This document shows positions 315-46,086 of a DNA stretch of 50,928 nucleotides, piece after piece. Each line of letters starts with the position of its first letter. Position 1 is the first letter of the stretch. The stretch comes from an uncultured Flavobacteriales bacterium. Lineage in GTDB: Bacteria > Bacteroidota > Bacteroidia > Flavobacteriales_C > GCA-002722245. The stretch covers positions 1-50,928 of the forward strand of contig CAWVWF010000004.1 of NCBI GenBank assembly GCA_963933885.1, written 5' to 3'. The notes under the pieces were generated by a model that was not told the DNA's origin, did no database searches, and saw only the letters and a program-made list of their open reading frames with translations. The position numbers were made by a program, and so were the translations under genes.

Positions 315-1094
315 TTAAAATTGAGATACAAACCCTCTTTCAAGTTTTTTAAATACTACAAAACCAATTGTAAATGTAACTACTGCTAGTATGGTACCTA
401 TTAAGAAATTTGTTCCATCAGGCATTCTATTATGATAAACAACATCTCTTAGTAGATTGATATAATAATAAAGCGGGTTTAGCTTAATCAGTAGTAAGTA
501 TTTTTCTGGTATTAAATCAGATGTAAATGCAATAGGTGCAGAATAAAAAATCGCAGGAAGAAATGAAGTCCATGCCAACTGCATATCTCTAAAATAAACA
601 TTTAATGAAGTCAGTATTAGAGATAAACCTAATGTAAAACCAGTAAATATTAATAATATAGGAATGAAAAATATTAACTCCCAAGAGAGTTCTAAGCCAA
701 ATAAGAGCATAAGTATCGTAAACGGTACAAGTGTAAATCCTAAACTAATTATTGACGCTAATTGAGCGCTTAAAGGAAATGCGATTGGGGGTACATTGAT
801 AGACTTCAAGACACCTGAATTATCAATTAATGATTCAGTAACTTGGATTGTTGATGTTGAGAAAAATGACCAAAAGACAATCCCGGTTAATGCATAAAGT
901 GGATATCTATCAATATCACCGAAAACTTTACTAAACACAAATGTGAAGATCAAAAGGTACATTAATGGATTTAACATGCTCCAAAAAAAACCTAGTATAG
1001 AATTCTTATATTTTAATTTTAAAGTTTTATAAGCTAATACCCATATTAAATGGGTAAAACTACCAATACCTCTCTTAGCTTTATCCTCGATCAT
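315..1094 (-). CDS. wzm: ABC-2 type polysaccharide export permease (Wzm-like)
   Basis: LKLKYKNSILGFFWSMLNPL and YFRD...P..YS...NPLYY motifs, multiple TM helices; ATG at 1094 preferred to the ORF-track start 1151, which overlaps the upstream gene. Confidence 0.9.
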   Translation of the reverse strand: MIEDKAKRGIGSFTHLIWVLAYKTLKLKYKNSILGFFWSMLNPLMYLLIFTFVFSKVFGDIDRYPLYALTGIVFWSFFSTSTIQVTESLIDNSGVLKSINVPPIAFPLSAQLASIISLGFTLVPFTILMLLFGLELSWELIFFIPILLIFTGFTLGLSLILTSLNVYFRDMQLAWTSFLPAIFYSAPIAFTSDLIPEKYLLLIKLNPLYYYINLLRDVVYHNRMPDGTNFLIGTILAVVTFTIGFVVFKKLERGFVSQF

Positions 1095-1104
1095 AACTCC
1101 AAAA

Positions 1105-2466
1105 TTAATAAACTGTTTTCTTGGATTTAAATAAGTCCAATATTGTTTCAAAAATAATTATAATATCAAAGATAAAAGACCAATTCCGTAAATAGAATCT
1201 ATCCATTTTAACTCTATTGTTTTTTGATTCGAAACTTTTTGTCTCTCCTCTAAAACCTCTTGCCTGAGCTAACCCCGTAATACCTGGCTTTATCGATTGC
1301 CTAACCATATATTGATCTATTTCATCGGCAAATGCTTCCGTGTGTAACAGCATATGAGGGCGAGGTCCAACAATACTCATTTGCCCAATAAGTACATTAA
1401 AGAATTGTGGTAATTCATCTAAAGAGGTTTTCCTAAGAAAACTTCCTATTTTAGTAACTCTAACATCACCTTTGGTTGCTTGTTTAATTCCTGATTCATC
1501 GTTAACACGCATTGTTCTCAATTTCAAACACCAAAATGCCAAATTATCCTTACCAGATCTTTTTTGCTTAAAAATCACGGAACCTTTAGAATCAAGTTTG
1601 ATCAACAAAAACAGAATTGGTAATAACCAAGAAAGAAGAAATAATATAACTGAAACCGAAAAGACAATATCAAAAGTTCGTTTAATAATTCTATTTCTTA
1701 AATAATCCAACGGCATTCGGACTATATTTAAAATAGGTAGATGACCAAAGTTTTCAACTTCAACTCCTCTAAAAATAAAACCCTTAAAATCAAGAACTAA
1801 TTTAAACTTAAAGAAATTATCTTCTGCAAATTGAACCAATGAATTCATTCTTCCATATTTCAATGAGTTGATTGAATAGAATATTTCATGAACTTCGTTT
1901 GAAGTACAAAACGCTTTTAACTGGGTATTAACTTCGTCAATATTTTCATTATTTGCATAAAACTCTTTAGCTACTTTATATCCGAAGTGAGTATTTTCCT
2001 TTAAAAACTCACAAAGTCCAGAATTCACTCCCTCCTGGTGAACAATTACAAGGCTTCTATAATTATATCCCTTCTTTCTGAAAAACTTAAGTGAAATAAC
2101 ATAAAACATTTTCCAAAAGAAAAGACTCAAACCTAGTACAGTATAAAAGATAGTAAGAAGCTCTCTAGAATACTGTAAATCACTCTGTGCTACGTAGAAT
2201 ACTGAAACAAATAACAAATGTAGAAAGACTATAACAAAGTGATTCCTAAACACCACCCTCATCTTGGCAACACGAGAGATCTTATAAGGCTTAATAAGTT
2301 GAGTAACAAAAAACCAAGTTAGGTTAATGTACATTAGCATTGACAAAAAAGGTTCAAAGAACCCATCGTGCTTCCAATAAAATGCAAAGACAAAACTTAC
2401 ATTCAGAAGAAGAGTGTCAACAAAGAAATTCACAACTGAAATTATAGCTGAATACCTTTTTAGCAT
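1105..2466 (-). CDS. Undecaprenyl-phosphate sugar phosphotransferase (WcaJ/WbaP family)
   Basis: N-terminal TM helices; C-terminal KRTFDI...KLRTM...D.RVT.IG.FLRKTSLDELPQFFNVL.G.MSIVGPRP...KPGITGLAQ bacterial sugar transferase motifs. Confidence 0.93.
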   Translation of the reverse strand: MLKRYSAIISVVNFFVDTLLLNVSFVFAFYWKHDGFFEPFLSMLMYINLTWFFVTQLIKPYKISRVAKMRVVFRNHFVIVFLHLLFVSVFYVAQSDLQYSRELLTIFYTVLGLSLFFWKMFYVISLKFFRKKGYNYRSLVIVHQEGVNSGLCEFLKENTHFGYKVAKEFYANNENIDEVNTQLKAFCTSNEVHEIFYSINSLKYGRMNSLVQFAEDNFFKFKLVLDFKGFIFRGVEVENFGHLPILNIVRMPLDYLRNRIIKRTFDIVFSVSVILFLLSWLLPILFLLIKLDSKGSVIFKQKRSGKDNLAFWCLKLRTMRVNDESGIKQATKGDVRVTKIGSFLRKTSLDELPQFFNVLIGQMSIVGPRPHMLLHTEAFADEIDQYMVRQSIKPGITGLAQARGFRGETKSFESKNNRVKMDRFYLRNWSFIFDIIIIFETILDLFKSKKTVY

Positions 2467-3752
2467 ATTTTCTCATTTTTCATAAAAATAAGAAAACTGT
2501 TTAAGAAAGAAAAAGAAATAATACCTACTTGCCTTGAAAAAACATTCTCAGTTAAAATACAAATGGAAAAAAACAAAATCAACACGGCACCAAATAATAT
2601 TCTTTTCTGAAAAGCAACAATTATAGATATTACAAAAAGAAGTATTAAAGAGAGTAAACCAAACACTCCATAGCTCAACCAGTAATCCAAGTACTGATTA
2701 TGCGTATTAAATTTATTTTGAAGATATAAAGGAGACTCAAAGCCTTCATAACAGGAGTTTAAATATACTTCACTTCCCCCAGCTCCTAGTCCAAATAACC
2801 AATTTTGTTTAATACCTGAAACTGTACATAATACGATACCAGTTCTAACATTAAAAGAATCATTACTTTTTTCAGTTGGCAATTTCACATTTGAAAATGA
2901 AACTTCATCGATTTTTGCTTTAAAAGAAGGATTAAAGGAATACGCCAGAACAAATATTGAAATAACCCCAATTGGACCAAACATAAGAAATCTCTTCAGT
3001 CCGATTTTTTGTATAAACAAGATTGAGATCCCCAAGAAAGTTGCAAACAAAGGCATTCTTGATGTTACAACAAACATACATGCCATTCCTAATATAAAAG
3101 CCGATGTAAGTAATAACTTCTTTAAAAGTGAAAATCCATTCCAAATATTGGGTGTAAAATATACAAATGAGATTAAGCAAATACCCATTATTATATTTGA
3201 ATAGGTAGGATGTACTCCTGAATATTTCGCATAAGAAGTACGAAATTGATGTTGAAAGTGGGGGATTTCTGTGAAACTACTTATTCCTAGCCCTTCACCC
3301 GAATCGTTAATAATCGTATTCATATCTATAAAAGCACCAATGATTCCCTTTATAAAAAGAAACAACATGCTCATACCTAGTATGAAAAATAGAATCCTTA
3401 GATGTTTTAAACCAAGTCGCTCTTCCTGCATAAAAAAAGTGAGCGGTATAAAAAGGAAGGCTAATGATTTCTCTACTGCAAATCCACTTTGCTTGGATGA
3501 ATCAATTAGGAAATATGAAAGTAGAATAACCAAAAAAGGTAGAATTTGGAAAAACAGTACGATTTGATTCTTTCTTTCTGCTCTCTTAAACCTTTCTGAG
3601 AATGAAGATGTATTGCTTAAGATTCCAAAGAGTGCCCATATAATAACGAACAAACTAGTAACACGCAAAGGAAATAATGGAAACAGGCATAAAAGACCTG
3701 AAAGCCAAAAAAATATGTTCTGTTTATTAATCGTTATATTTTTCGGTAACAT
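2460..3752 (-). CDS. O-antigen ligase/polymerase family membrane protein (WaaL/Wzy_C)
   Basis: Polytopic; T-SR motif, S...R loop, FGLGAG and HNQYL motifs typical of Wzy_C. Confidence 0.8.
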   Translation of the reverse strand: MLPKNITINKQNIFFWLSGLLCLFPLFPLRVTSLFVIIWALFGILSNTSSFSERFKRAERKNQIVLFFQILPFLVILLSYFLIDSSKQSGFAVEKSLAFLFIPLTFFMQEERLGLKHLRILFFILGMSMLFLFIKGIIGAFIDMNTIINDSGEGLGISSFTEIPHFQHQFRTSYAKYSGVHPTYSNIIMGICLISFVYFTPNIWNGFSLLKKLLLTSAFILGMACMFVVTSRMPLFATFLGISILFIQKIGLKRFLMFGPIGVISIFVLAYSFNPSFKAKIDEVSFSNVKLPTEKSNDSFNVRTGIVLCTVSGIKQNWLFGLGAGGSEVYLNSCYEGFESPLYLQNKFNTHNQYLDYWLSYGVFGLLSLILLFVISIIVAFQKRILFGAVLILFFSICILTENVFSRQVGIISFSFLNSFLIFMKNEKIC

Positions 3753-4827
3753 ATTTCTCGATCTTATTCTTAAAACTGTCTATAGTGAAATCATCAATAT
3801 GCCTTAGTAATACATCTTGATTAATTTTTAATGGGTTCTTTTCGAAATCATTAATAGTTTCTTTTAAAGATATAACTGTTTGTTCATCAAAAAAGACACC
3901 CGTTTCATTATTTAATACTGTTTCGAGATAACCTCCTTTTTTCAATGCAATTACAGGTGTACCACAAGCTTGTGCTTCGATACTTGTTATACCAAAATCT
4001 TCATTGGCCGCTAAAACATAAGCCTTAGCATTTTGAATTTTTTCAATCAATTCATTTTGGGCTAAGAAACCTAAAAACTCAACATTTGGAATATCTTTCT
4101 TAATTAAACTTTTAAGTTCTGGTCCATCACCTGCTACTATTAATTTCAAATGAGGTAAAAGAGCAAAGGCCTCAACAATTAAACTAACTTTTTTATAAGG
4201 TACCATTCTACAAGAAGTGAAGTAATAAGATTTTTTCTCTTCTTTAAAAGTAAAAACAGACACATCCGCCGGTGGATAAATAACAAAAGCTTCACGTTTA
4301 TAGATTCTATTAATACGCTCTTGAACATTATGAGAGTTTGCTATAAAATGATCCACATTATCAACAGTTTTTAAATCCCACTTTGCAATTCTATTTATAA
4401 TGGATTTAAAAAAAACTTTCTTAATAAGACCTAAATCATTTAAATACTGTTCTTTTAAATCCCAAGCGTACCTCATTGGTGAATGACAATAACAAATATG
4501 TAATTGCCTTCCTTTTTCTCGTTTTATTCCCTTTGCAACACAGTATGATGATGAAATAATTAAATCATATTCACTTAAATCAAAAGTTTCAATTGCTTTT
4601 GGAAATAAAAAAAGTAAATTACGATAATAGTGTTTTATAAATGGTAGTTTTTGAAGCCAAGTTGTTTTAGCCTTTTTACCTAATAATACTTTATTCCTAG
4701 TTGAATCAGGTAAAAAATCGATCAATGCAAACAAGTCTGCTTCAGGGTAAACATTCAGTATTTCATGCAAAACTTTTTCAGCTCCTCCTTCAACAATTAA
4801 CCAGTCTTGAACAATAGCAACCTTCAT
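3727..4827 (-). CDS. Glycosyltransferase family 4 (WbaZ/mannosyltransferase-like)
   Basis: MKVAIVQDWL...GGAEKV, CYCHSPMRYAWD, EDFGITSIEAQACGTPVIA (EX7E). Confidence 0.92.
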   Translation of the reverse strand: MKVAIVQDWLIVEGGAEKVLHEILNVYPEADLFALIDFLPDSTRNKVLLGKKAKTTWLQKLPFIKHYYRNLLFLFPKAIETFDLSEYDLIISSSYCVAKGIKREKGRQLHICYCHSPMRYAWDLKEQYLNDLGLIKKVFFKSIINRIAKWDLKTVDNVDHFIANSHNVQERINRIYKREAFVIYPPADVSVFTFKEEKKSYYFTSCRMVPYKKVSLIVEAFALLPHLKLIVAGDGPELKSLIKKDIPNVEFLGFLAQNELIEKIQNAKAYVLAANEDFGITSIEAQACGTPVIALKKGGYLETVLNNETGVFFDEQTVISLKETINDFEKNPLKINQDVLLRHIDDFTIDSFKNKIEKYVTEKYND

Positions 4828-5849
4828 AAATACCTTTTAAACAAATTTACTCTATCTATATTGCAAAAATAGTTAAATCTGTTATAACTAATTTGAGTTT
4901 CGCTTACATTTCTCAATGCTTTTTCAAAACCAACGCTATCATCTAAATTAACATATACAACTTCATCTCCACCTACCTCTTTATTAACAGGTATATTAGA
5001 ACATATTATTGGTCTATTAACACTCATTGCTTCAATTGTGGGTATTCCGAAACCTTCGTATAAACTAAAATTAACAAAACCCTTGGCATTAGTATAGAGC
5101 CATTTCAATTCTGACACATCACAGAAACCAACCCAATGGACATTCTTAAATTCTTTATTAATTGTTTTGAAATTCTTATTTGAACCACCCACAATTACCA
5201 ATTTAAAATCTGGATTTGAGTCAAAAAATTCACAAAGCCATTCATAGTTTTTTCTTGGATTAACAGATCCAACCACAAGAAAATATTCTTGATAAGGTAT
5301 AGTTATTTCTGTAGGTTCTGCATCTAGAAACTCTTGACTTACCTTATTGTAAACAACCTCAACTTTATTAGGGTAAACTTGGTATTCATCAATAATTTCT
5401 TTTCTCACAGTATTACTAACTGTAAGAACTTTCTTAGATCGATTAACCACAATTGGAATTAGCAAATTATAAATAAATCGAAAAGTAAAACTAAACCAAG
5501 CCTTATTCTTAATAAAAGCTAAATCATGAATCGTCACCCAACTGTTTTTTGCAAAAACAGGTGCCATATTACACAAGTTCAGTAATGTTAATCCTTTCTT
5601 GTTCGTATATAACGGTAATGTTAATTGTTCCCAAAAATAGCCATTACCTCCTTTAACAATTTTAATATCTAAATGATTTAAAGATTCATCTTTTAAGGGA
5701 AGATTGGGCACTAAAATCACACAATCAATTTCCTGAGATAACTCAAGTACTAAATCAATAGCAAACCGTTGAACTCCAGTTGGCTGTTGTGTTAAAAATC
5801 TTCCGTTAATATATAGCGCTTTCCTTTTGATAATGTTTTCGTTACCCAC
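4824..5849 (-). CDS. Glycosyltransferase family 4
   Basis: INGRFLTQ..TGVQRFA, VTIHDLAF, PRKN, SLYEGFGIPTIEAM; GTG start. Confidence 0.9.
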   Translation of the reverse strand: MGNENIIKRKALYINGRFLTQQPTGVQRFAIDLVLELSQEIDCVILVPNLPLKDESLNHLDIKIVKGGNGYFWEQLTLPLYTNKKGLTLLNLCNMAPVFAKNSWVTIHDLAFIKNKAWFSFTFRFIYNLLIPIVVNRSKKVLTVSNTVRKEIIDEYQVYPNKVEVVYNKVSQEFLDAEPTEITIPYQEYFLVVGSVNPRKNYEWLCEFFDSNPDFKLVIVGGSNKNFKTINKEFKNVHWVGFCDVSELKWLYTNAKGFVNFSLYEGFGIPTIEAMSVNRPIICSNIPVNKEVGGDEVVYVNLDDSVGFEKALRNVSETQISYNRFNYFCNIDRVNLFKRYL

Positions 5850-9152: not shown

Positions 9153-12100
9153 TTGGAACAAAAACAAAAAACTAAATCATTTATAAAAAGCATCCTTATT
9201 ATAGGGTTAGTTATTTTAACTAGCACCGTTGTTTCTGCCCAAAAATTCCCTTTTAAAAACTACACAGTCAATGAAGGTTTAAGTACCAATAAAATCATTG
9301 CTATTTACCAGAAAAAGAACAATGAACTTTGGTTAGGAAGTACTGAAGGAATTAACATTTTCGACGGAAACTCTTTTAGATCTTCTAATTCTTTATTTAA
9401 ACTTCCACACAGAACAGTATATGACATAACGGAAATTGATCATAAAACATACATTTCAACCAATGGAGGTTTATGTATATATGATGGGAAAGACACGATA
9501 GTTTATAGAGTAGCAAATGGGTTAAAGCACAACAGGGTATTTAAGACGTTTGAAGATAGCGACGGTGTAATTTGGATTGCCACTCAACAAGGAGTTCATA
9601 TTCTCAAGAATAAAATCACAAACGTAGATATTCATCCTGTGATTAACAATGAAGCAATCTATAACATCTTTGAAGATAATCAAGGAGCATTATGGTTTTG
9701 CTCAAATAAAAGTGGTGTAATTAGGTACTATAAAAACGAAACAACTCAGTTTTTAAATAATCAGTATCCTCATAGTTTTGTTGGTGGAGTTCTGCAATTC
9801 AACGATTCCACGGTATGGGCTGTAACTAGATCAGGCCTATATTCAATCAGTGGAGACCATGTAATTAAAGTTAAAACTGGAGCAGGTAATGAAACAAACT
9901 TTTATGATATAAAAAAAAGTAAAAATGGAGATATTTGGTTGGCCAGTAACGATGGAGTATTTGTTTACCGAAACAATAAATTCAGAGTTTTCACCACTGA
10001 AAATGGTTTGATAAATAATACAATTCTAAAAATATTTGAAGACAACGAAAACTCAATGTGGTTCGCTTCACCTGGCAACGGTGTTTCACAACTAATTAAT
10101 GAAAAATTCAATTTATTTGATGCCTCAAGTCTTTATTACCCTAATGTGACAAGTATTATTCCTAAAAATGATAGTATACTATTCCTTGGTTGCGAAGACG
10201 GAATCATTAAATTCAACAGATTATCCAATAAAGCAGATACATTACCTGTTCCTAAAAACATTTTCTACAATGGTTTTTATGATCACAAAACTCAACAACT
10301 CATAATTGGTTGTAATGAAGGAACATTGATAATTGATGATGACGACAATAGCTTTAAACACAAAAGAATTCGTTCAATTACAAGTGAAGGAAGTTTAAGG
10401 AAATGTTGGGACGTTGCCCGCGATGATAATGGGAAATTATGGTTTGCAACCTCTGAAGGAGTTGGCCATTTAAAAGATAGTTTGGTTTCCTTCTATAAGT
10501 CTTCTGGAAACTATCACGAATTTGTTTTAGACATTCAAAAAGATAGCACCGGAAAACTATTTTTCGCTACGGAACTTGGATTGTCATATATAGAAGATGG
10601 TGAAATAGTAAATTACTCTAAAGAGAAAAACTTCCATAACAACAGAATAAGACAAATTGCATTAGATAACAATGGTTTGATGTGGTTTGTGGGAGACAAA
10701 GGACTTTACAAGCAAAGTGCTGATTCATTTCAAATAATTGATTACCACCATATTAAAAACGAATCTTTGCAATCAATAGTTTTTGATAATAACAATACGC
10801 TTTGGGCAGGTGTCTCAAATGGAATTATAAATTTCGATTTTAAAAACGAGAAACCAGATATTAGATTCTATTCGAAATCAGATGGATACTTAGGCGCAGA
10901 ATGTAATTTATTCTCTATTTTCTCTAGCAAAAACGGGAATATTTATTTCGGTACTGAAAACGGGCTAGTCAACTATCAACCTACAAGTCAAATAGATAAA
11001 AAGATTATTCCTGAGATAAATCTAAAAATGAATGTAATTGGTATTTCAAACTTAAATGAATATTCTGATTCAGTTAATAAAACGGATTTACCTACCAAAC
11101 TTCATTTACCTCGCAACAATAACAATATCTCTTTTTCATTTAATGTTGTTAGTTTACGATATGGAGAAACAATTAAATTTAGACATCAGTTAGTTGGATT
11201 AGAAAAAGAATGGAAGAATTCCAGTAACGTTTCTGAAATTGAATTCAATGAATTACCATTTGGATCTTACACATTTAAACTTAAAATTATTGATCACCCG
11301 AACCTTAAAGAATCGGAAGAGGTCTCAATTGAATTTACAATAGAAAAACCCTTTTACCTTCAGACTTGGTTCATCTTCATTTGTACTATTATTATTCTTA
11401 CATGGATATACTCCTATTACCTTATTCAAAAGAATGTTAAGCTATTAAACAGACAACAAGAAATCATTATCTCACAAAAAAACACTGTTGAGAAAACCAA
11501 TAAAGAAATTGTAGATAGTATTACTTATGCAAAGCGAATTCAAGATGCTATTTTACCGAATGACCGTTTCTTAAATGAAATTCTCAATGAATACTTCATC
11601 TTATACAGACCATGTAATATTGTTTCAGGTGATTTTTATTGGGTTGAAAAATTAGGCGATGAAATTGTATTTGCTGCCGCAGACTGCACAGGACATGGTG
11701 TCCCAGGCGCCATGGTTAGTTTAATGTGTAGTAATTTATTAAGGAAAGTTATTCTTGAAGAGCAATGTAGCGATCCTGGATTAGTACTTGATAAAGTATC
11801 AAAAGATCTTCTTAAACGATTAGACGGACAAGATGAAACTGTAAATGATGGTATGGATATAAGCTTATGTTTTTGGAATCCAAAAACTAATGAACTCCGA
11901 TTTTCTGGTGCTAATAATCCGATGTTTTTAATTAGAGATGGAGAGCTTATAATTACAAAAGCAGATAAACAACCAATTGGATATTTTGAGGATAGAGTAC
12001 CATTTACAACTCATGAATCAGTTTTACAATCAGGAGATCAAATCATACTATTTTCTGATGGATATAAAGATCAATTTGGAGGGCCGAAAAACAAGAAATT

Positions 12101-12251
12101 CAGCTCTAAGCGTTTCAAACAATCATTAATAGATAATTCAAAATCAGATCTGAAATCTCAAAGACTTAATCTGAATAGTACGTTTAATGAATGGAAACAA
12201 GACGAAGAACAGATTGATGATATTTGTATTTTTTCAATTAGAATAAAATAA
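9153..12251 (+). CDS. Membrane sensor with two-component regulator propeller repeats, Y_Y_Y domain and PP2C/SpoIIE phosphatase
   Basis: Repeated GL..N.I..I.ED..G..W; LPFGSYTF; TM after KPFYLQTWF; SITYAKRIQ.AILP, VSGDFYW, ADCTGHGVPGA, DGMD, FSDGYKDQFGG, QIDDI; start codon (TTG) uncertain. Confidence 0.9.
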   Translation: MEQKQKTKSFIKSILIIGLVILTSTVVSAQKFPFKNYTVNEGLSTNKIIAIYQKKNNELWLGSTEGINIFDGNSFRSSNSLFKLPHRTVYDITEIDHKTYISTNGGLCIYDGKDTIVYRVANGLKHNRVFKTFEDSDGVIWIATQQGVHILKNKITNVDIHPVINNEAIYNIFEDNQGALWFCSNKSGVIRYYKNETTQFLNNQYPHSFVGGVLQFNDSTVWAVTRSGLYSISGDHVIKVKTGAGNETNFYDIKKSKNGDIWLASNDGVFVYRNNKFRVFTTENGLINNTILKIFEDNENSMWFASPGNGVSQLINEKFNLFDASSLYYPNVTSIIPKNDSILFLGCEDGIIKFNRLSNKADTLPVPKNIFYNGFYDHKTQQLIIGCNEGTLIIDDDDNSFKHKRIRSITSEGSLRKCWDVARDDNGKLWFATSEGVGHLKDSLVSFYKSSGNYHEFVLDIQKDSTGKLFFATELGLSYIEDGEIVNYSKEKNFHNNRIRQIALDNNGLMWFVGDKGLYKQSADSFQIIDYHHIKNESLQSIVFDNNNTLWAGVSNGIINFDFKNEKPDIRFYSKSDGYLGAECNLFSIFSSKNGNIYFGTENGLVNYQPTSQIDKKIIPEINLKMNVIGISNLNEYSDSVNKTDLPTKLHLPRNNNNISFSFNVVSLRYGETIKFRHQLVGLEKEWKNSSNVSEIEFNELPFGSYTFKLKIIDHPNLKESEEVSIEFTIEKPFYLQTWFIFICTIIILTWIYSYYLIQKNVKLLNRQQEIIISQKNTVEKTNKEIVDSITYAKRIQDAILPNDRFLNEILNEYFILYRPCNIVSGDFYWVEKLGDEIVFAAADCTGHGVPGAMVSLMCSNLLRKVILEEQCSDPGLVLDKVSKDLLKRLDGQDETVNDGMDISLCFWNPKTNELRFSGANNPMFLIRDGELIITKADKQPIGYFEDRVPFTTHESVLQSGDQIILFSDGYKDQFGGPKNKKFSSKRFKQSLIDNSKSDLKSQRLNLNSTFNEWKQDEEQIDDICIFSIRIK

Positions 12252-22276: not shown

Positions 22277-25078
22277 TTATAAAGTCTTTAAATAGTCTGT
22301 AAAGCTGGTGTCATCGTCAAGCTCCCACTTCTTTTTCAAACGGTACTTCCTTTTTTCAACTGCAGCAACAGAAATCGTGAGTAGTTCTGCAATCTCTTTA
22401 TTTGATTTTCCCATTCTAACATAAGAACAAAATAATAAATAGGATTCACTCAACTTAGCATCCTTATCTTTTAACTTTTGGAAGAAGTTATTGTTCTTTT
22501 GATCAAAATGAACTTGGAAGTTATCCCAATTACTTTCATCATCCAAATTAGTAGAAATACTCCTTTTTAGAGATGTAACTTTCGTTCTTTCTTCATGTTC
22601 CATTTCTTTTGATAAAGAATCCAACTTACCTACAACACTTGCCAGCATTTCCTTTTTCTGAGTATACGACAATGCCATATATGCCAATTCATTTTCCTTA
22701 TTTCGAAGTTCAATTTCCAGCTTCTCAGCATTATGTAATTTTTCCTTAATCTCAAGCTCCCTTTCCTTTTCAGCTTGTAATATTTTGGCTTGTTTATCGA
22801 AGCGTTTTTTAATGTAGAGCGCAGCTATGATTAACATAATAAAATAACCAAACTTAGCTACTCCGGTTCTATACCATGGTGGTAATACAACAAACATATA
22901 AGATTCACTACCTAAAACACTATCTCCTTTCTTTGCTCTAACAACAAAGGTGTAATCACCTTCTTTTAAATTAGTGTATTCCCTGTAGTTAACCTCTTTT
23001 ACTGCTTGCCATCCAGTAATAGAATTTTTATTTACGATTAATTGCGTTTCGTAAACTACTTGATCCATCTCACCAAATGCAGGAATTGAGAATGTAAATC
23101 GAAAGTTATTATGTTCAAAAGGATAAGATAATAGTGTATTTGGTTTTCCATTAAATAATAACGAATCTACATTATCTCCAAGTAATTCAACTTCTCTAAT
23201 CAAACAATTAATACTCTCTGATTTCTTATTCGATTTAGGTTCATATATAGCAAAACCTTCTTGTGTTCCAACAAGATATTTATTGGGTGATATTTTATTG
23301 AAAAATTCAGCAGAACCAACTAGATTACTTTTTAAATATGAAACTGGTGTGCTTTTTAGAACCCATTTATCATTTACCTTATGAACGATATACGCTTTAT
23401 CTTTATAAATCCCATAGATTCCGTTTTCATCGTACTTCCTTGCTCTTCTAATATACTTGTATACCTCACTAAATGAATCATCTCTAATTAGAGAATCATT
23501 ATCTAAATAATACATTCCTCCAAATGTTGTAATATATATCTTGTTTTCAAAGTAAAATATATCATTAAAATAATCCGGACTAAACTTATATTTAGTAGCA
23601 TAATTAATTACAGATATAGCAGAATCTCTAGATGAATTAAGCTCTACACGATATAATCCTTTATTACCTTGGATCGCCCAAACAACTCCTTTGTGATCAA
23701 CTTCAAGAACTCTTGAAGATTCCTTATAACCAGCTATATTACTTTTAAAAGTCCACTTTCCGTTTTCGAAAACATACCTACTTGCTCCTAAGTAATGACC
23801 AATAAATGCTTCGTTTTTTTTGAACTTTTCTGAAGTTGACCAAACCCATGACCCTTTATTATCGTTTGGCGAAATCATTACGGGTTTCCCTTCAATAAGC
23901 GTGTACGTCTCATCTGATTGTGAGATTATTAAACTCCCATTCGAAACTGACAAATCGTTAATTGTATTTTCTGGAAGACCATCAATTTTAGTGAACTTCC
24001 TTATTTCGTCAAGACCTTTCTCCCAGTTATCCATAACGTATAAACCATAAGAAGTTCCAATATAAAGTTGCTCGTTATACACAACTCCACTATACCCCAT
24101 CCCTTCAAAGCCTTGAGATTTTGTGATATACTTAATAGGAGAATTCCATTTTAACATTCCAATTCCATTATTATATGCTATCCAAACGTTACCAGACTTA
24201 TCTAGGAATAGGTGATTAATATAATTATCTTCTAATCCATGTTTCGTAGTTAAATTCCTTAAGATCTTTCCCGAAGAGTTTAAAACATATATCCCCCTAT
24301 TTACAGTCCCTAACAAAAACTCATCATCTGAAATTTTCAAAACAGAAGTTATTTCAGAGTTTCCAATAATAGTATTTGCTTCTTCGAATAATTTTGAATT
24401 ACTAGTTGATCTAATTCCAAATTTCCCGAAAATCACATAATCTTTATTAATCCATTGAATCGAATTCACAGATTCAATAGAGTTTTCACTGAGAAAAACA
24501 GATGCTTTATTATTTTTAATACTTCCTAGTCCCTTACCTTCTTCCCAATAAACTAATTCATTGTTAATAGGAATTAAACTTTTCACTAAACTAGTATTTG
24601 AAAAGCCTGTTAATTCAATAATTGAATCTGATTCAGCCATATAAAGTCTAGACTTTGTCATGAAATAAATCGCCCCCTCAAAAGAAACAGCTTTATAAAT
24701 CTGCCCAAATTCTGTATCTCCAATTATTTTGTCCTTTAATGATATATATATCGTTTTCTGAGTACTGTCTTTCCCTAGATATCCAAACTCAGATGACGAA
24801 CCAACATATATTCTTCCATTATCATCTTTCGCGAAGCTTAAAGCACTTTTACCATTAACCAAAGGAATCTTCCTAAATGAACTCCCGTCGTATTCAAGTA
24901 CACAATAAGCATTCGCTATATATATCATTCCTGACGAATCCTGTGTGAATCCGTAATTAATAGAATGACTTTGATAATCTGTAGTTGTAAAATTAACTAT
25001 ATCAGGAACTGAGGCAAATCCAGCTACATTGAATAATAAAGTAAATACAACTTGAAATATAACGTGGGTTTTCATCAT
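22277..25078 (-). CDS. One-component transmembrane regulator: beta-propeller sensor, Y_Y_Y domain, TM, coiled coil, LuxR-type HTH
   Basis: Propeller repeats; REYTNLKEGDYTFVVRA; LPPWYRT TM; C-terminal F..HF...NNFFQKL...LS...C.YVRMG.SNKEIAELL.IS..AVEK.KYRL.KK. Confidence 0.88.
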   Translation of the reverse strand: MMKTHVIFQVVFTLLFNVAGFASVPDIVNFTTTDYQSHSINYGFTQDSSGMIYIANAYCVLEYDGSSFRKIPLVNGKSALSFAKDDNGRIYVGSSSEFGYLGKDSTQKTIYISLKDKIIGDTEFGQIYKAVSFEGAIYFMTKSRLYMAESDSIIELTGFSNTSLVKSLIPINNELVYWEEGKGLGSIKNNKASVFLSENSIESVNSIQWINKDYVIFGKFGIRSTSNSKLFEEANTIIGNSEITSVLKISDDEFLLGTVNRGIYVLNSSGKILRNLTTKHGLEDNYINHLFLDKSGNVWIAYNNGIGMLKWNSPIKYITKSQGFEGMGYSGVVYNEQLYIGTSYGLYVMDNWEKGLDEIRKFTKIDGLPENTINDLSVSNGSLIISQSDETYTLIEGKPVMISPNDNKGSWVWSTSEKFKKNEAFIGHYLGASRYVFENGKWTFKSNIAGYKESSRVLEVDHKGVVWAIQGNKGLYRVELNSSRDSAISVINYATKYKFSPDYFNDIFYFENKIYITTFGGMYYLDNDSLIRDDSFSEVYKYIRRARKYDENGIYGIYKDKAYIVHKVNDKWVLKSTPVSYLKSNLVGSAEFFNKISPNKYLVGTQEGFAIYEPKSNKKSESINCLIREVELLGDNVDSLLFNGKPNTLLSYPFEHNNFRFTFSIPAFGEMDQVVYETQLIVNKNSITGWQAVKEVNYREYTNLKEGDYTFVVRAKKGDSVLGSESYMFVVLPPWYRTGVAKFGYFIMLIIAALYIKKRFDKQAKILQAEKERELEIKEKLHNAEKLEIELRNKENELAYMALSYTQKKEMLASVVGKLDSLSKEMEHEERTKVTSLKRSISTNLDDESNWDNFQVHFDQKNNNFFQKLKDKDAKLSESYLLFCSYVRMGKSNKEIAELLTISVAAVEKRKYRLKKKWELDDDTSFTDYLKTL

Positions 25079-25268
25079 AATAAAATGTATGTCTCTCTAA
25101 TTTAAACGATAATATTTCACCGTGAAAGTTTAGATCAAAAATAATAGGTTTATTGAAGCAGACAAAAATCAGACACCTTTAATTTTTAATATTTAAATTG
25201 AATCATACAATGAGAAAAAAAACATCAAGATCACATCGTAACAAACTAACAAACAACCCAATAAGAAC

Positions 25269-25318
25269 TGTCTCATGATTGTCCTCTAACATTTTAACTA
25301 ATGTCTCAAGGTAGTCCT
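25269..25318 (+). promoter_or_regulatory. Direct-repeat operator candidate
   Basis: TGTCTCATGATTGTCCT (25269-25285) and TGTCTCAAGGTAGTCCT (25302-25318), 14/17 identical, 33 bp apart. Confidence 0.6.
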
Positions 25319-25350
25319 GCATTATTTTAGCGTTATCAAAAATTGAAATC

Positions 25351-25358
25351 TATATTTG
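25351..25358 (+). promoter_or_regulatory. Bacteroidota -7 promoter box
   Basis: TATATTTG matches TAnnTTTG exactly. Confidence 0.6.
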
Positions 25359-25363
25359 ATGAG

Positions 25364-25433
25364 CATACAATTATTCATTGTAGGTTTTAAAAAAGGTTAA
25401 AAGAACAGAAGTTAAGGTCTGTTCTTTTTTTTT
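25364..25433 (+). ncRNA. Candidate small RNA, about 70 nt
   Basis: Consensus -7 box, 5' hairpin TACAAT/ATTGTA, GGTTTT..GGTT linker, terminator hairpin plus T9; no ORF. Confidence 0.45.
25399..25433 (+). terminator. Intrinsic terminator 1
   Basis: AAAAGAACAGA-AGTTAAGG-TCTGTTCTTTT followed by further Ts. Confidence 0.75.
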
Positions 25434-25491
25434 AGACAATCAAGAAACTCAATATATTTAAAATCCGAATTCCCAAATCCGTGTTAACGGT

Positions 25492-25526
25492 AACTAAAAG
25501 GGTTCCAAGTAGCCCTTTTAGTTTTT
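25492..25526 (+). terminator. Intrinsic terminator-like hairpin 2
   Basis: AACTAAAAGGG-TTCCAAGTAG-CCCTTTTAGTT followed by TTT. Confidence 0.7.
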
Positions 25527-25564
25527 ATCTCATTATCAATAAGACGTTCTTTCAAAACTTACCC

Positions 25565-25593
25565 ATCCTCGCAAAGCGCGAGGATTTTTTTTT
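25565..25593 (+). terminator. Intrinsic terminator 3
   Basis: ATCCTCGC-AAAGC-GCGAGGAT followed by a T-run. Confidence 0.8.
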
Positions 25594-25689
25594 GCAAAAA
25601 ATGCAAATTTCTTTTTTCATCAGTAAAATTTAATTGAAAATAAGTCTTGAATTCGGTCAACTTTGTATCATAAACTAAAAACAAATATT

Positions 25690-26763
25690 ATGAAAAAGTT
25701 AAACTTATTACTCGTACTTATTGCATTTACATTTATAGGAAAAGCTGCTGAAAGAGTTGCAGTATTAAATTTCGATATTATAGGACAAGCACTTACAAAA
25801 CAACAATTCATTTCAATTACAAGAACAGAAATCGCAAAACTTGACACATTCCAAGTATTAGACAAATACACAGTTCAAGAGGTATTTGATGCAAATCCAG
25901 TAGATTTAGAAAAATGTTATGGTGTTAAATGTTTAACAGAAATAGGAAAAAAACTAAATGTAAAGTATGTAATTGCAGGAACAGCAGAGGTAATCACTGA
26001 TAAAGCAATTATTACATTAAGATTAATAGATATCGAAAATGAAACTGTCGTAAAAACTTCATATTCCGAATTCATATGGTCTGAAGCAAACTCACAAAGA
26101 TTAATTCAAATGGCAGTATTTAAATTATTTAACAGAGGAATCGATCGTAGATTAAAAAACTTATACGACTATGAAACTGTTAAAGAAGCTGCATTTGAAG
26201 GTCCAGAAATAATAAAATACAATTTATCAGGACCACGTTTCGGAGGAGCATACCAAACTGGGCTAATGGAAAATATCATAACAAACGGGACAAATAGCGG
26301 TGGATTTAACAAAAATCCATTTGTGACTGTAATAGGATACCAAATGGAAAAGCAATATTTATTCACAGGTGCATTCCAAGCAGTATTTCAAATGAATTTT
26401 TCTTTATCAGGTCTAGACCAACAAATGGCGATACCTTCAGTATCGATATTAAACGGATTCAGATCTTCAAAAGGGGGATGGGAATTTGGATTTGGTCCAT
26501 CGTTTAGATTTAGAAAAACAGCAGAAGGATTTTATAGAGATGGAGAATGGAATTTAGTTAACGAAGCTTTACCAGGTGAAGACATTGAAAAAGAATTTCG
26601 TTTAGATAGCAGAGGAAGTTTAAAATTCATTAGTTCATGGGTATGGGCAGTAGGAAAAAGCTTTAAAGCTGGTAATATGAATATTCCTGTAAACTTATAT
26701 ACGATTCCTGATAAGGACGGGTGGCAGTTTGGAATTTCAATGGGATATGCATTACATATGTAA
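25690..26763 (+). CDS. Exported protein: N-terminal CsgG/TolB-N-like domain plus beta-strand-rich C-terminal domain
   Basis: Signal peptide MKKLNLLL...GKA; VAVLNF, C.GVKCL.EIGKKLNV.YVI.G, ITLRLID.E...V; C-terminal alternating strands ending GWQFGISMGY; ATG at 25690 preferred. Confidence 0.65.
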   Translation: MKKLNLLLVLIAFTFIGKAAERVAVLNFDIIGQALTKQQFISITRTEIAKLDTFQVLDKYTVQEVFDANPVDLEKCYGVKCLTEIGKKLNVKYVIAGTAEVITDKAIITLRLIDIENETVVKTSYSEFIWSEANSQRLIQMAVFKLFNRGIDRRLKNLYDYETVKEAAFEGPEIIKYNLSGPRFGGAYQTGLMENIITNGTNSGGFNKNPFVTVIGYQMEKQYLFTGAFQAVFQMNFSLSGLDQQMAIPSVSILNGFRSSKGGWEFGFGPSFRFRKTAEGFYRDGEWNLVNEALPGEDIEKEFRLDSRGSLKFISSWVWAVGKSFKAGNMNIPVNLYTIPDKDGWQFGISMGYALHM

Positions 26764-26778
26764 AATCCAATAAAATAT

Positions 26779-26815
26779 AAAAAGGCAATAAGGGTAAACT
26801 CTTATTGCCTTTTTT
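26779..26815. terminator. Bidirectional intrinsic terminator
   Basis: AAAAAGGCAATAAG-GGTAAACT-CTTATTGCCTTTTT between convergent genes. Confidence 0.85.
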
Positions 26816-27317
26816 ATATTTTAACATCTGAAAAACCTTTCAAATCATTAAAATAAGGAAATACATATTTAGAAATTCCCTTTAAAAAAGGATAACAAAT
26901 TGAATCATTAAGTATTGATGTATCAACCAAGTTGAATTTAGTATTTACATTTTCAAAAAACAACAATACAACTGCTAAGATTAAAATAGTTTTACAAGCA
27001 CTAAAAAGAGCACCTCCAATTTTATTAAAAAGTCCTAATGCAAGAATATCAATAAACTTACTTAAAAGCTTCCCCAGAAAATACATACCAACCAAAACAC
27101 CTAAGAATGTTACAGCAAATGCAAGTAAAGGAATATCTAATTGGAATTTCTCAAATAACACTTCTGATGTAATGTGAGAAAACTTTACCCCTGCCCAAAC
27201 TCCAAGTACTAAACCAATGAGTGTTGCTATACTTAAGACTAAACCCTTGGTAAATCCTTTGTACATTCCAAATAGTAATGGAATTAATACTGCCAAATCA
27301 AAATAATTAAATTCCAC
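26814..27317 (-). CDS. cvpA: CvpA (colicin V production) family membrane protein
   Basis: N.FD...GF.KGL, LGLFNKIGGALF. Confidence 0.88.
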   Translation of the reverse strand: MEFNYFDLAVLIPLLFGMYKGFTKGLVLSIATLIGLVLGVWAGVKFSHITSEVLFEKFQLDIPLLAFAVTFLGVLVGMYFLGKLLSKFIDILALGLFNKIGGALFSACKTILILAVVLLFFENVNTKFNLVDTSILNDSICYPFLKGISKYVFPYFNDLKGFSDVKI

Positions 27318-45090: not shown

Positions 45091-46086
45091 TTATCGCTTA
45101 AAAACGGCTTTTAAAGTTTCCTTTATTGAAACTACATTTAATGGGAATTCCAATAATACATGAAGCATACTTATAAAAAATAACACCTTCAATCCTATAG
45201 AATAATTATAAAAATAGGTTCCAATTGCAAGAACGGAAACTGCAATTACAACAAGTAATCTAGGCTTTGTTAAACTTTTACCCCAACCTATTACCGATGT
45301 TTTTGAAAACCAATTTAAGTAATGATACAAGTATGCATAAGAGATGAATACTTGGGTTTTACAAGCTGTTAAAGGGGTTACTTTTTCAATCCCGATTAAG
45401 GACTCAAAATCCAAGTTTGTCTGTTGATGTGAGCTTTTAAAAATTCCTTTTATAGATTCAGGAATCGAATAACCTTCCGGATCTAATGGTACATACAATA
45501 CAATTATCGGTACCAAAACATGAAGGATAATAGGAATATAACCAGTTTTGTTCTTAGACTTGATTGCCCCGTACAGCATAAACATTCCTGTGAAAATATA
45601 AACATGAACCAAGGTTGGAAGGAACGTTCCAATTAATATATGGAAGTTATCTGCTTCCCTTAAAAAAGCGCCAACAAACATTGCTAATACCCCAACAAGA
45701 AAGTAAAACATCTTGTTATCAGTAAACACAACAGTTATCCCCAAAATTAACGATGTAAAAATAACTGGATCTCCCCATTTAGTTAATGCTATAACTTGAT
45801 CGTAAACATCTTTATGCGCTCGAGTCCATTCCTCAATACCTGGTAAGAAAAATAAATGTGGAATACTTAAAAAGGCGGTTAAACCTCCCAAGATCCAAAC
45901 TGTTGTTTTCTTTGATTTCGAAAAATAATTATTATCGTTTAACCAATTGATTTCCGTTAAATAATGAAGCGGTCCTAGAATGGCGTAAGAATAAATTAAT
46001 AGTCTGAATGGAAGAATATAAGCCAAGATTAAACATGCTGGAATAAGTATAATATTAAGCCGATCTATATTCTGATTTTTCACCAT
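45091..46086 (-). CDS. Uncharacterised polytopic membrane protein
   Basis: Many TM segments; LGPLHYLTEI.WL, PTLVHV, YHYLNWFSKT, LHVLLEFPLN. Confidence 0.75.
   Translation of the reverse strand: MVKNQNIDRLNIILIPACLILAYILPFRLLIYSYAILGPLHYLTEINWLNDNNYFSKSKKTTVWILGGLTAFLSIPHLFFLPGIEEWTRAHKDVYDQVIALTKWGDPVIFTSLILGITVVFTDNKMFYFLVGVLAMFVGAFLREADNFHILIGTFLPTLVHVYIFTGMFMLYGAIKSKNKTGYIPIILHVLVPIIVLYVPLDPEGYSIPESIKGIFKSSHQQTNLDFESLIGIEKVTPLTACKTQVFISYAYLYHYLNWFSKTSVIGWGKSLTKPRLLVVIAVSVLAIGTYFYNYSIGLKVLFFISMLHVLLEFPLNVVSIKETLKAVFKR

Follow-up and report, generated by a model that had tools for sequence, protein, structure and literature searches.

A candidate non-coding RNA locus with a conserved operator–promoter arrangement beside a membrane sensor-regulator gene in an uncultured Flavobacteriales bacterium

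The window, by which we mean the whole stretch of DNA analysed here, comprises 50,928 nucleotides (nt) of contig CAWVWF010000004.1 (assembly GCA_963933885.1) from an uncultured Flavobacteriales bacterium. Within it two genes are divergently arranged, one encoding a membrane one-component regulator and the other a FlgO-like lipoprotein, and the gap between them holds a putative operator, a promoter box (that of a promoter we call P1) and three consecutive units, each closed by a terminator-like hairpin (Table 1). On comparative sequence evidence, we put at somewhat over one half (roughly 0.55) the probability that this gap is a stand-alone non-coding RNA locus and the chief direct target of the membrane sensor-regulator beside it.

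Table 1. Features of the regulator gene, the gap and the FlgO-like gene (window coordinates).
Feature	Position	Strand	Description
Membrane one-component regulator	22277..25078	-	933 amino acids (aa)
Probable -7 box of the regulator's own promoter	25136..25143	-	TATTTTTG on the - strand, read from the sequence
Intergenic gap	25079-25689		611 nt, between the regulator start (25078, - strand) and the ATG (25690) of the FlgO-like gene
Phased repeats	25269-25285; 25302-25318		TGTCTCATGATTGTCCT; TGTCTCAAGGTAGTCCT; 33 nt apart
Putative operator	25270..25316	+	Four GTC half-sites at 25270, 25281, 25303 and 25314 (offsets 0/11/33/44)
P1 -7 box	25351..25358	+	TATATTTG, 37 nt past the last half-site; predicted start ~25363
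Unit 1 (RNA1), predicted	25363..25433	+	~71 nt: unpaired 5' part, hairpin, U run 25425-25433
Hairpin 1	25399-25428	+	11 bp, then T run
Unit 2	25434..25528	+	TATATTTA box 25453-25460 (7/8), unpaired stretch, hairpin, short U run
Hairpin 2	25492-25523	+	13 bp, then T run
Unit 3	25529..25593	+	Motif CGTTCTTTCAAAACTTACCCA 25545-25565, hairpin, U run 25586-25593
Hairpin 3	25565-25585	+	8 bp, 5 G-C, then T run
FlgO-like gene promoter block	25586..25689	+	104 nt: TTTTTTGCAAAAAATGCAAA, then CAACTTTG (25658-25665), then a short leader
FlgO-like lipoprotein gene	25690..26763	+	357 aa; Pfam FlgO 25.5 bits; the cassette's neighbour, not part of it

From the N- to the C-terminus the regulator incorporates a hydrophobic signal-like segment, a propeller, a Y_Y_Y domain, one transmembrane segment, a charged linker and a LuxR/GerE-like helix-turn-helix. 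The Pfam model Reg_prop matches above its cutoff (31.5 bits) and Y_Y_Y below it (24.4 bits vs 26.6), while the helix-turn-helix, at residues 887–927, is matched by GerE at 18.3 bits (below cutoff) and by Sigma70_r4_2 at 20.2 bits. Hydropathy places the single internal hydrophobic segment at about residues 738–756, and the protein gave no match to a kinase or receiver domain (HisKA, HATPase or receiver). Its N-terminal half resembles periplasmic sensors from hybrid two-component systems of Bacteroides (PDB 4a2l, 3va6, 3ott and 3v9f; phmmer, E 7e-11 to 2e-8). The gene is single-copy in its own genome and has orthologues across the family, with 58–60% identity in genus g2, 48% in g4 and g5, and 36–40% in genus g3. 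The initial annotation of this DNA, made from the letters alone, had seen no susC/susD locus, and our scan agrees, with zero matches to SusC or SusD among the 41 distinct open reading frames (ORFs) of the window that were scanned; the seven unscanned ORFs of at least 110 aa are each no longer than 170 aa.

The gap had also been described as free of any credible ORF, and this holds: the longest begins with GTG, spans hairpins 2 and 3 and measures 50 aa, the next two are 41 and 39 aa long, the sister loci L046 and L047 have no equivalent of any of them, and no conserved small ORF was found in the gap. The phased repeats, the P1 box, the three hairpin-closed units and the box before the FlgO-like gene likewise all lie where they had first been placed. 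Each of the three hairpins is a G+C-containing stem-loop with a U run directly after it, as expected of an intrinsic (Rho-independent) terminator, which is what they are predicted to be. A terminator scan called five such sites in 2 kb, as against 0.4 expected from shuffles. Each unit folds into a long unpaired 5' part and a hairpin, with folding energies of -16.1, -20.1 and -13.0 kcal/mol (z -3.2, -4.3 and -2.8). No Rfam 15 family reaches its gathering threshold in the gap (best 24.2 bits vs a threshold of 55), and on ten related loci Rfam 15 found transfer RNAs (tRNAs) only. A DNA similarity search of the genome's own 271-contig assembly returned no second copy of any piece of the gap, and against 60 relatives the gap DNA gave only short matches, mostly T/A-rich. 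A search of metatranscriptome runs (one run search) gave two with 9% and 6% of the sampled words of the stretch; four metatranscriptome contigs fell on 23000–27300, all in coding sequence and zero on the gap, a cover too thin to judge expression.

The arrangement of operator and promoter provides the first line of comparative evidence. Twenty regulator-adjacent loci of our own choosing were compared, and the full geometry, in which half-sites at offsets 0/11/33/44 are followed after 37–38 nt by a TAnnTTTG box, is present in 11 of them, namely the window, G014 and G010 of genus g2, and eight g3 loci. The last half-site and the box are separated by 37 nt in the window and by 38 nt in the other ten, the G010 box (TACTTTCG) having been read by eye; in published work the TAnnTTTG box is placed at -12 to -5 (PMC9723704). 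The nine loci where the full geometry is absent are L046, L047, G001, G005, G008 (variant spacing), G012, one g3 paralogue, g4 and g5. The four-site arrangement occurs once in the window's own 3.44-Mb genome, at 25270, with no occurrence of the control pattern, and the presence of a full operator only here fits a local output of the regulator. Among 401 class-level genomes, the composite pattern with 38-nt spacing was found in eight, all of them g3 (8/8 g3 sampled) and none of another family; the control again gave 0. These comparisons support the view that the phased repeats form a conserved operator of four half-sites, with the P1 box at a distance fixed across the family, and from this linkage we infer that the regulator binds there.

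Downstream of P1, unit 1 contains no ATG and is the positional counterpart of RNA1 in genus g2 and of unit A in genus g3. With its own promoter, its own terminator and no ORF, unit 1 has the predicted make-up of a small RNA gene; for units 2 and 3 the promoter evidence is weak. In alignment A8 the operator, P1 box, unit 1 and unit 3 of the window all stand opposite g2 equivalents. Within genus g2, RNA1 of G008 and G010 is identical at 63/74 positions, and the flanking spacers at 15/33 and 17/42; three AGG motifs can be seen by eye in each RNA1 of the window and g2. Unit 3 is linked to g2 by a motif of 19–21 nt, CGTTCTTT-N-TTACCCA, of which the window, G008, G010 and G014 have one occurrence each, in all four at 340–470 nt upstream of the regulator. 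The stems that directly follow it differ in sequence and are perfect or near-perfect in each case (ATCCTCGC, AACCAATC, AGCCATCTAG and CCCAATTGGC), with a T run behind; they were read directly, as the four hairpins are of unequal length and MAFFT gave them no register. A fifth match to the pattern, in G001, was set aside as chance, since it lies in apparent coding sequence with no hairpin behind it. G014 (L056/L068) and G001 (L057/L069) differ cleanly by the presence or absence of ~200 nt that include the P1 box and both RNA units, with flanks that align on both sides.

In genus g3 the predicted RNA is strongly conserved: its first 22 nt, AAGAAAAGTAGATTGAATCCCC, are identical in nine of nine genomes and begin exactly at the predicted +1. 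In the hairpin that follows, 93.8% of cells are paired and three of nine pairs have changed on both sides, the structure having been set by hand on nine rows; RNAalifold found zero pairs on the 12-sequence g3 alignment because three of its rows were out of register. A second g3 module, TATAATAGGTTAAA plus a hairpin, varies in stem sequence between loci with the pairing kept (alignment A3, by eye). At least three g3 genomes hold a second copy of operator and RNA with three of the four half-sites (by eye). That of L103 lies between two co-directional genes, neither a regulator homologue and the downstream one dnaN-like (by eye), and such extra copies between unrelated genes indicate that these are independent genes. 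Comparison across the family thus shows, at the level of sequence, a fixed operator–promoter geometry, its linkage to the regulator, and hairpins whose sequence turns over with the pairing kept.

The protein gene that comes after the cassette differs between lineages, being the FlgO-like gene in the window, a two-domain oxidoreductase gene in G008 and G010, a convergent secreted-protein gene in G014 and the gene of a membrane AraC-type regulator in g3, so that a non-coding, terminator-closed stretch is found in three genera irrespective of its neighbour. Since the next gene in G014 is convergent, the RNA there cannot be a leader. Moreover, the FlgO-like gene of the window and the oxidoreductase genes of g2 keep promoter boxes of their own in relatives without the cassette, which favours an independent RNA locus.

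We propose that the C-terminal helix-turn-helix of the regulator would bind the four GTC half-sites on one face of the helix and that this would activate P1. Transcription would then start at about 25363, and most of it would end at the first terminator as an RNA of ~71 nt; read-through or weak internal starts could give longer forms ending at 25526 and 25593, the latter with the unit-3 motif. The three terminators would shield the FlgO-like gene, with its own promoter, from P1 transcription. Binding, activation, the transcripts and any role of the RNAs in trans are inferences here. The initial annotation had gone further, with a regulator that activates a tandem small-RNA cassette acting in trans; its core idea of a non-coding local output has comparative support, whereas three separate small RNAs with a role in trans exceed the evidence.

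Several observations weigh against a stand-alone RNA locus. In L046 and L047, which are the closest relatives, the hairpins and the P1 box are missing and no more than one or two half-sites are present. The cassette is absent from three of six g2 loci (G001, G005 and G012) and the operator from g4 and g5, so that the module, which is present in the window, in the other three g2 loci and in nine of nine g3 genomes and absent from L046, L047 and the g4 and g5 orthologues, is patchy and hence dispensable, and the regulator must work without it in some lineages. A TAnnTTTG box by itself is frequent, at 0.62 per kb per strand, and within the cassette a consensus box is found only at unit 1, units 2 and 3 having no consensus promoter. 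Sequence conservation of RNA1 ends at the genus, the window and g2 sharing only 21–28 of 74 positions. Unit 2 is lineage-specific; alignment A8 shows it as inserted sequence with respect to g2, and no relative of it was found. A covariance model of g3 unit A (R1) did not detect the window units, scoring 12.2 bits (E 0.26) and, for unit 2, 9.3 bits (E 1.4). The reversed unit-3 pattern, run as a control, gave three matches in 22 genomes, where the pattern itself had the one chance match in G001, and for this reason the weight of the motif lies in its position and not in its count. Finally, 15–25 nt separate the second hairpin from the downstream ATG of the AraC-type gene in three g3 loci, which looks like a leader there.

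Our first reading, taken from L046 and L047 because both lack the hairpins, was that these are lineage-specific debris, and it was dropped after more distant regulator orthologues showed the cassette. The initial annotation had named a lack of conservation as a sign against its proposal, and this sign is there in part only, as the closest relatives are without the cassette and more distant relatives have it.

The same patchiness bears on a different explanation, which we consider unlikely, namely that P1 is or was the regulated promoter of a protein gene, with the hairpins as neutral leftovers of insertions or as roadblocks before the FlgO-like gene and the RNAs as by-products. It would account for the five of nine g1-like and g2 loci in which the cassette is missing and the regulator intact, and for G012, where the two remaining half-sites lie directly before the oxidoreductase gene, as well as G005, where that gene is directly upstream and the half-site pair absent. 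The insertion of unit 2, the lack of RNA1 sequence conservation across genera and the further ORF-free terminator arrays at C21, C20 and C83 of the same genome are also in keeping with it. However, selection on the RNA itself is indicated by the 22 invariant nt of g3, by RNA1 being 85% identical between G008 and G010 where the flanks are ~40–45% identical, and by the conserved unit-3 motif. Moreover, no former coding sequence could be traced by tblastx of 25170–25600 against all loci and the own genome (nothing below E 0.3).

A regulated leader, in which P1 would read through to the FlgO-like gene and the hairpins would act as attenuators relieved by antitermination, was the alternative named in the initial annotation, and we find it rather improbable at this locus. 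All three hairpins are oriented towards the FlgO-like gene, and the second g3 module may indeed be a leader in the three loci where its hairpin directly precedes the next ATG. Nevertheless, the FlgO-like promoter block is kept, at 82–86% identity, in L043, L044, L046 and L047, all of which are without hairpins, the downstream gene varies by lineage, and neither an alternative antiterminator pairing nor a leader peptide was seen. The four metagenome contigs with enough upstream sequence encode FlgO-like proteins that are 80–83% identical. L046 and L047 keep the pair of regulator (76% identical) and FlgO-like gene across gaps of only ~424 and 369 nt, and in alignment A1 conservation is confined to the two ends, that is, the regulator promoter side, with the block TCAAAAATAAT.GGTTTA kept in both, and the 104-nt FlgO-like block. 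More widely, the FlgO-like gene is found in 19 of 21 family genomes, with a regulator within 1.5 kb upstream in none of the 18 relatives that have it.

That the hairpins are dispersed palindromic repeats or the 3' ends of deleted genes, a doubt raised by the initial annotation and in line with their location in sequence that the window does not share with L046 and L047, is very improbable, as they have no second copy in the genome and no similarity to coding sequence of the relatives, and unit 3 and the operator–P1 module are positionally conserved in other genera.

If the gap is a stand-alone RNA locus, its closest parallels, by analogy, would be GacA-Rsm or LuxO-Qrr for the logic and BguR for the regulator. 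In GacS/GacA-RsmX/Y/Z and BarA/UvrY-CsrB/C, a LuxR/NarL-type regulator has as its direct targets essentially a few small-RNA genes with an upstream element, sometimes in several copies per genome; both are phosphorelay systems, and their RNAs sequester CsrA/RsmA via GGA loops. The LuxR-type helix-turn-helix and the two RNA gene copies per genome in at least three g3 genomes are points of likeness, whereas the regulator of the window, with no kinase or receiver match, differs from a phosphorelay. Small RNAs of Bacteroidota are reportedly covered by a transcriptome map of Bacteroides thetaiotaomicron. The Rfp RNAs of Flavobacterium psychrophilum are described as short RNAs that are transcribed independently from a TAnnTTTG promoter and end at an intrinsic terminator (PMC9723704). 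The window resembles such small RNAs in both elements and in a conservation limited to the genus or little beyond, but that account of the Rfp RNAs mentions no dedicated membrane sensor to which they would be linked through a fixed operator (PMC9723704).

BguR of Formosa agariphila is reported to be a membrane-spanning one-component beta-glucan regulator that activates a SusC/D polysaccharide utilisation locus, with homologues reported only in beta-glucan loci (bioRxiv 10.64898/2026.01.10.698779). On that description it is close to the present regulator in length (940 vs 933 aa), in domain order and in having no phosphorelay domains (bioRxiv 10.64898/2026.01.10.698779). Both systems have a candidate binding motif in the divergent intergenic region. 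They differ in that BguR, as reported, faces a SusC/D locus, whereas none was found among the 41 scanned ORFs here and the operator is followed by a non-coding stretch; a further difference lies in the below-cutoff Y_Y_Y and GerE scores of the window regulator.

A wider, speculative proposition, which we regard as doubtful, is that, in this uncultured Bacteroidota family, a branch of BguR-like membrane sugar sensors gave up direct control of utilisation genes and signals only via small RNAs that set many genes post-transcriptionally, in a relay of the Gac/Rsm or Qrr kind. If this were true, the sole full operator in the genome would drive an RNA cassette (or two operator-plus-RNA genes per genome, as in at least three g3 genomes), and the repeated AGG motifs and the conserved unpaired 5' or pre-terminator stretches of the RNAs would belong to the relay. 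We know of no sensor-to-RNA circuit of this kind in Bacteroidota; to our knowledge, regulation by small RNAs has hardly been mapped in Flavobacteriia-like bacteria, and the usual RNA chaperones are apparently missing there. A sensor with a conserved operator in front of non-coding RNAs would tie extracellular sensing to post-transcriptional control in Bacteroidota and bring RNA families new to Rfam 15. It was not until 2026 that membrane one-component sensors of this build were described, and then as activators of glycan-utilisation loci (bioRxiv 10.64898/2026.01.10.698779). The fixed operator–promoter geometry provides a handle for binding assays, reporter fusions and a regulon search.

A duplex scan for targets of the RNAs gave candidate matches only, such as RNA1 with the 5' leader at C26:22035. 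In the unpaired part of unit 1, 17 nt (25382–25398) are perfectly complementary to C26:22012–22028 of the own genome, corresponding to -23 to -7 in the leader of a gene whose 520-aa product has a signal-like N-terminus; the complementarity is A/U-rich and possibly due to chance (BLAST E 0.019). The 12-nt complement of the g3 seed matches almost only the RNA genes themselves. An apparent homology of unit 2 to the g3 RNA (GAATTCCCAAAT beside GAATCCCCAAT, by eye) was not supported by the score that model R1 gave it. The best match of the g3 RNA model in the window lies at 45843–45907 (+; 20.7 bits, E 0.0019), antisense within an ORF and with two broken pairs, and is probably chance.

As to the rarity of terminator arrays, crude ORF calls gave 347 divergent intergenic regions in the own genome, 34 of which hold any such hairpin and four of which have three or more hairpin calls. 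At least three strong hairpins on the same strand are found in this gap, C21 and C83, and because of the latter two the array must be called rare but not unique. Stretches free of ORFs with three or four same-strand terminator-like hairpins occur at C21:24349–25549, C20:23097–23351 and C83:8903–9207. The C21 gap, of 1.2 kb with three strong hairpins, adjoins a 2669-aa ORF, and the C83 stretch includes a tRNA, the only match of Rfam to the three stretches.

In the g3 loci L073–L075, L078, L081, L085 and L089, the RNA cassette is followed by a conserved gene for a protein of 360–372 aa with an N-terminal membrane segment, and in the three of these proteins that were scanned (L074, L078 and L085) an AraC-type helix-turn-helix lies at the C-terminus. 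A GH64 beta-1,3-glucanase gene is convergent to this conserved gene in L075, and an unscanned ORF of equal size lies at the same place in L081. A beta-glucan theme would fit the regulator family.

Upstream of the FlgO-like gene, ~80–100 nt before its ATG, lies a near-palindrome, TTTGC[AG]AAAAATGCAAA (25588–25607), that is invariant in L043–L047. It recurs with one or two mismatches at C23:7942, C107:5099, C191:257 and C2:49918 of the own genome, before two genes with signal-peptide-like N-termini and at two further sites, and may be the site of another regulator. Elsewhere in the window, a second propeller/Y_Y_Y sensor of 1032 aa (9153–12251, +) has as its output a SpoIIE/PP2C-type phosphatase and not a DNA-binding domain, and a cluster for surface-polysaccharide synthesis (315–5849, -) encodes an ABC-2 transporter, a sugar transferase, a Wzy-like polymerase and two group-1 glycosyltransferases.

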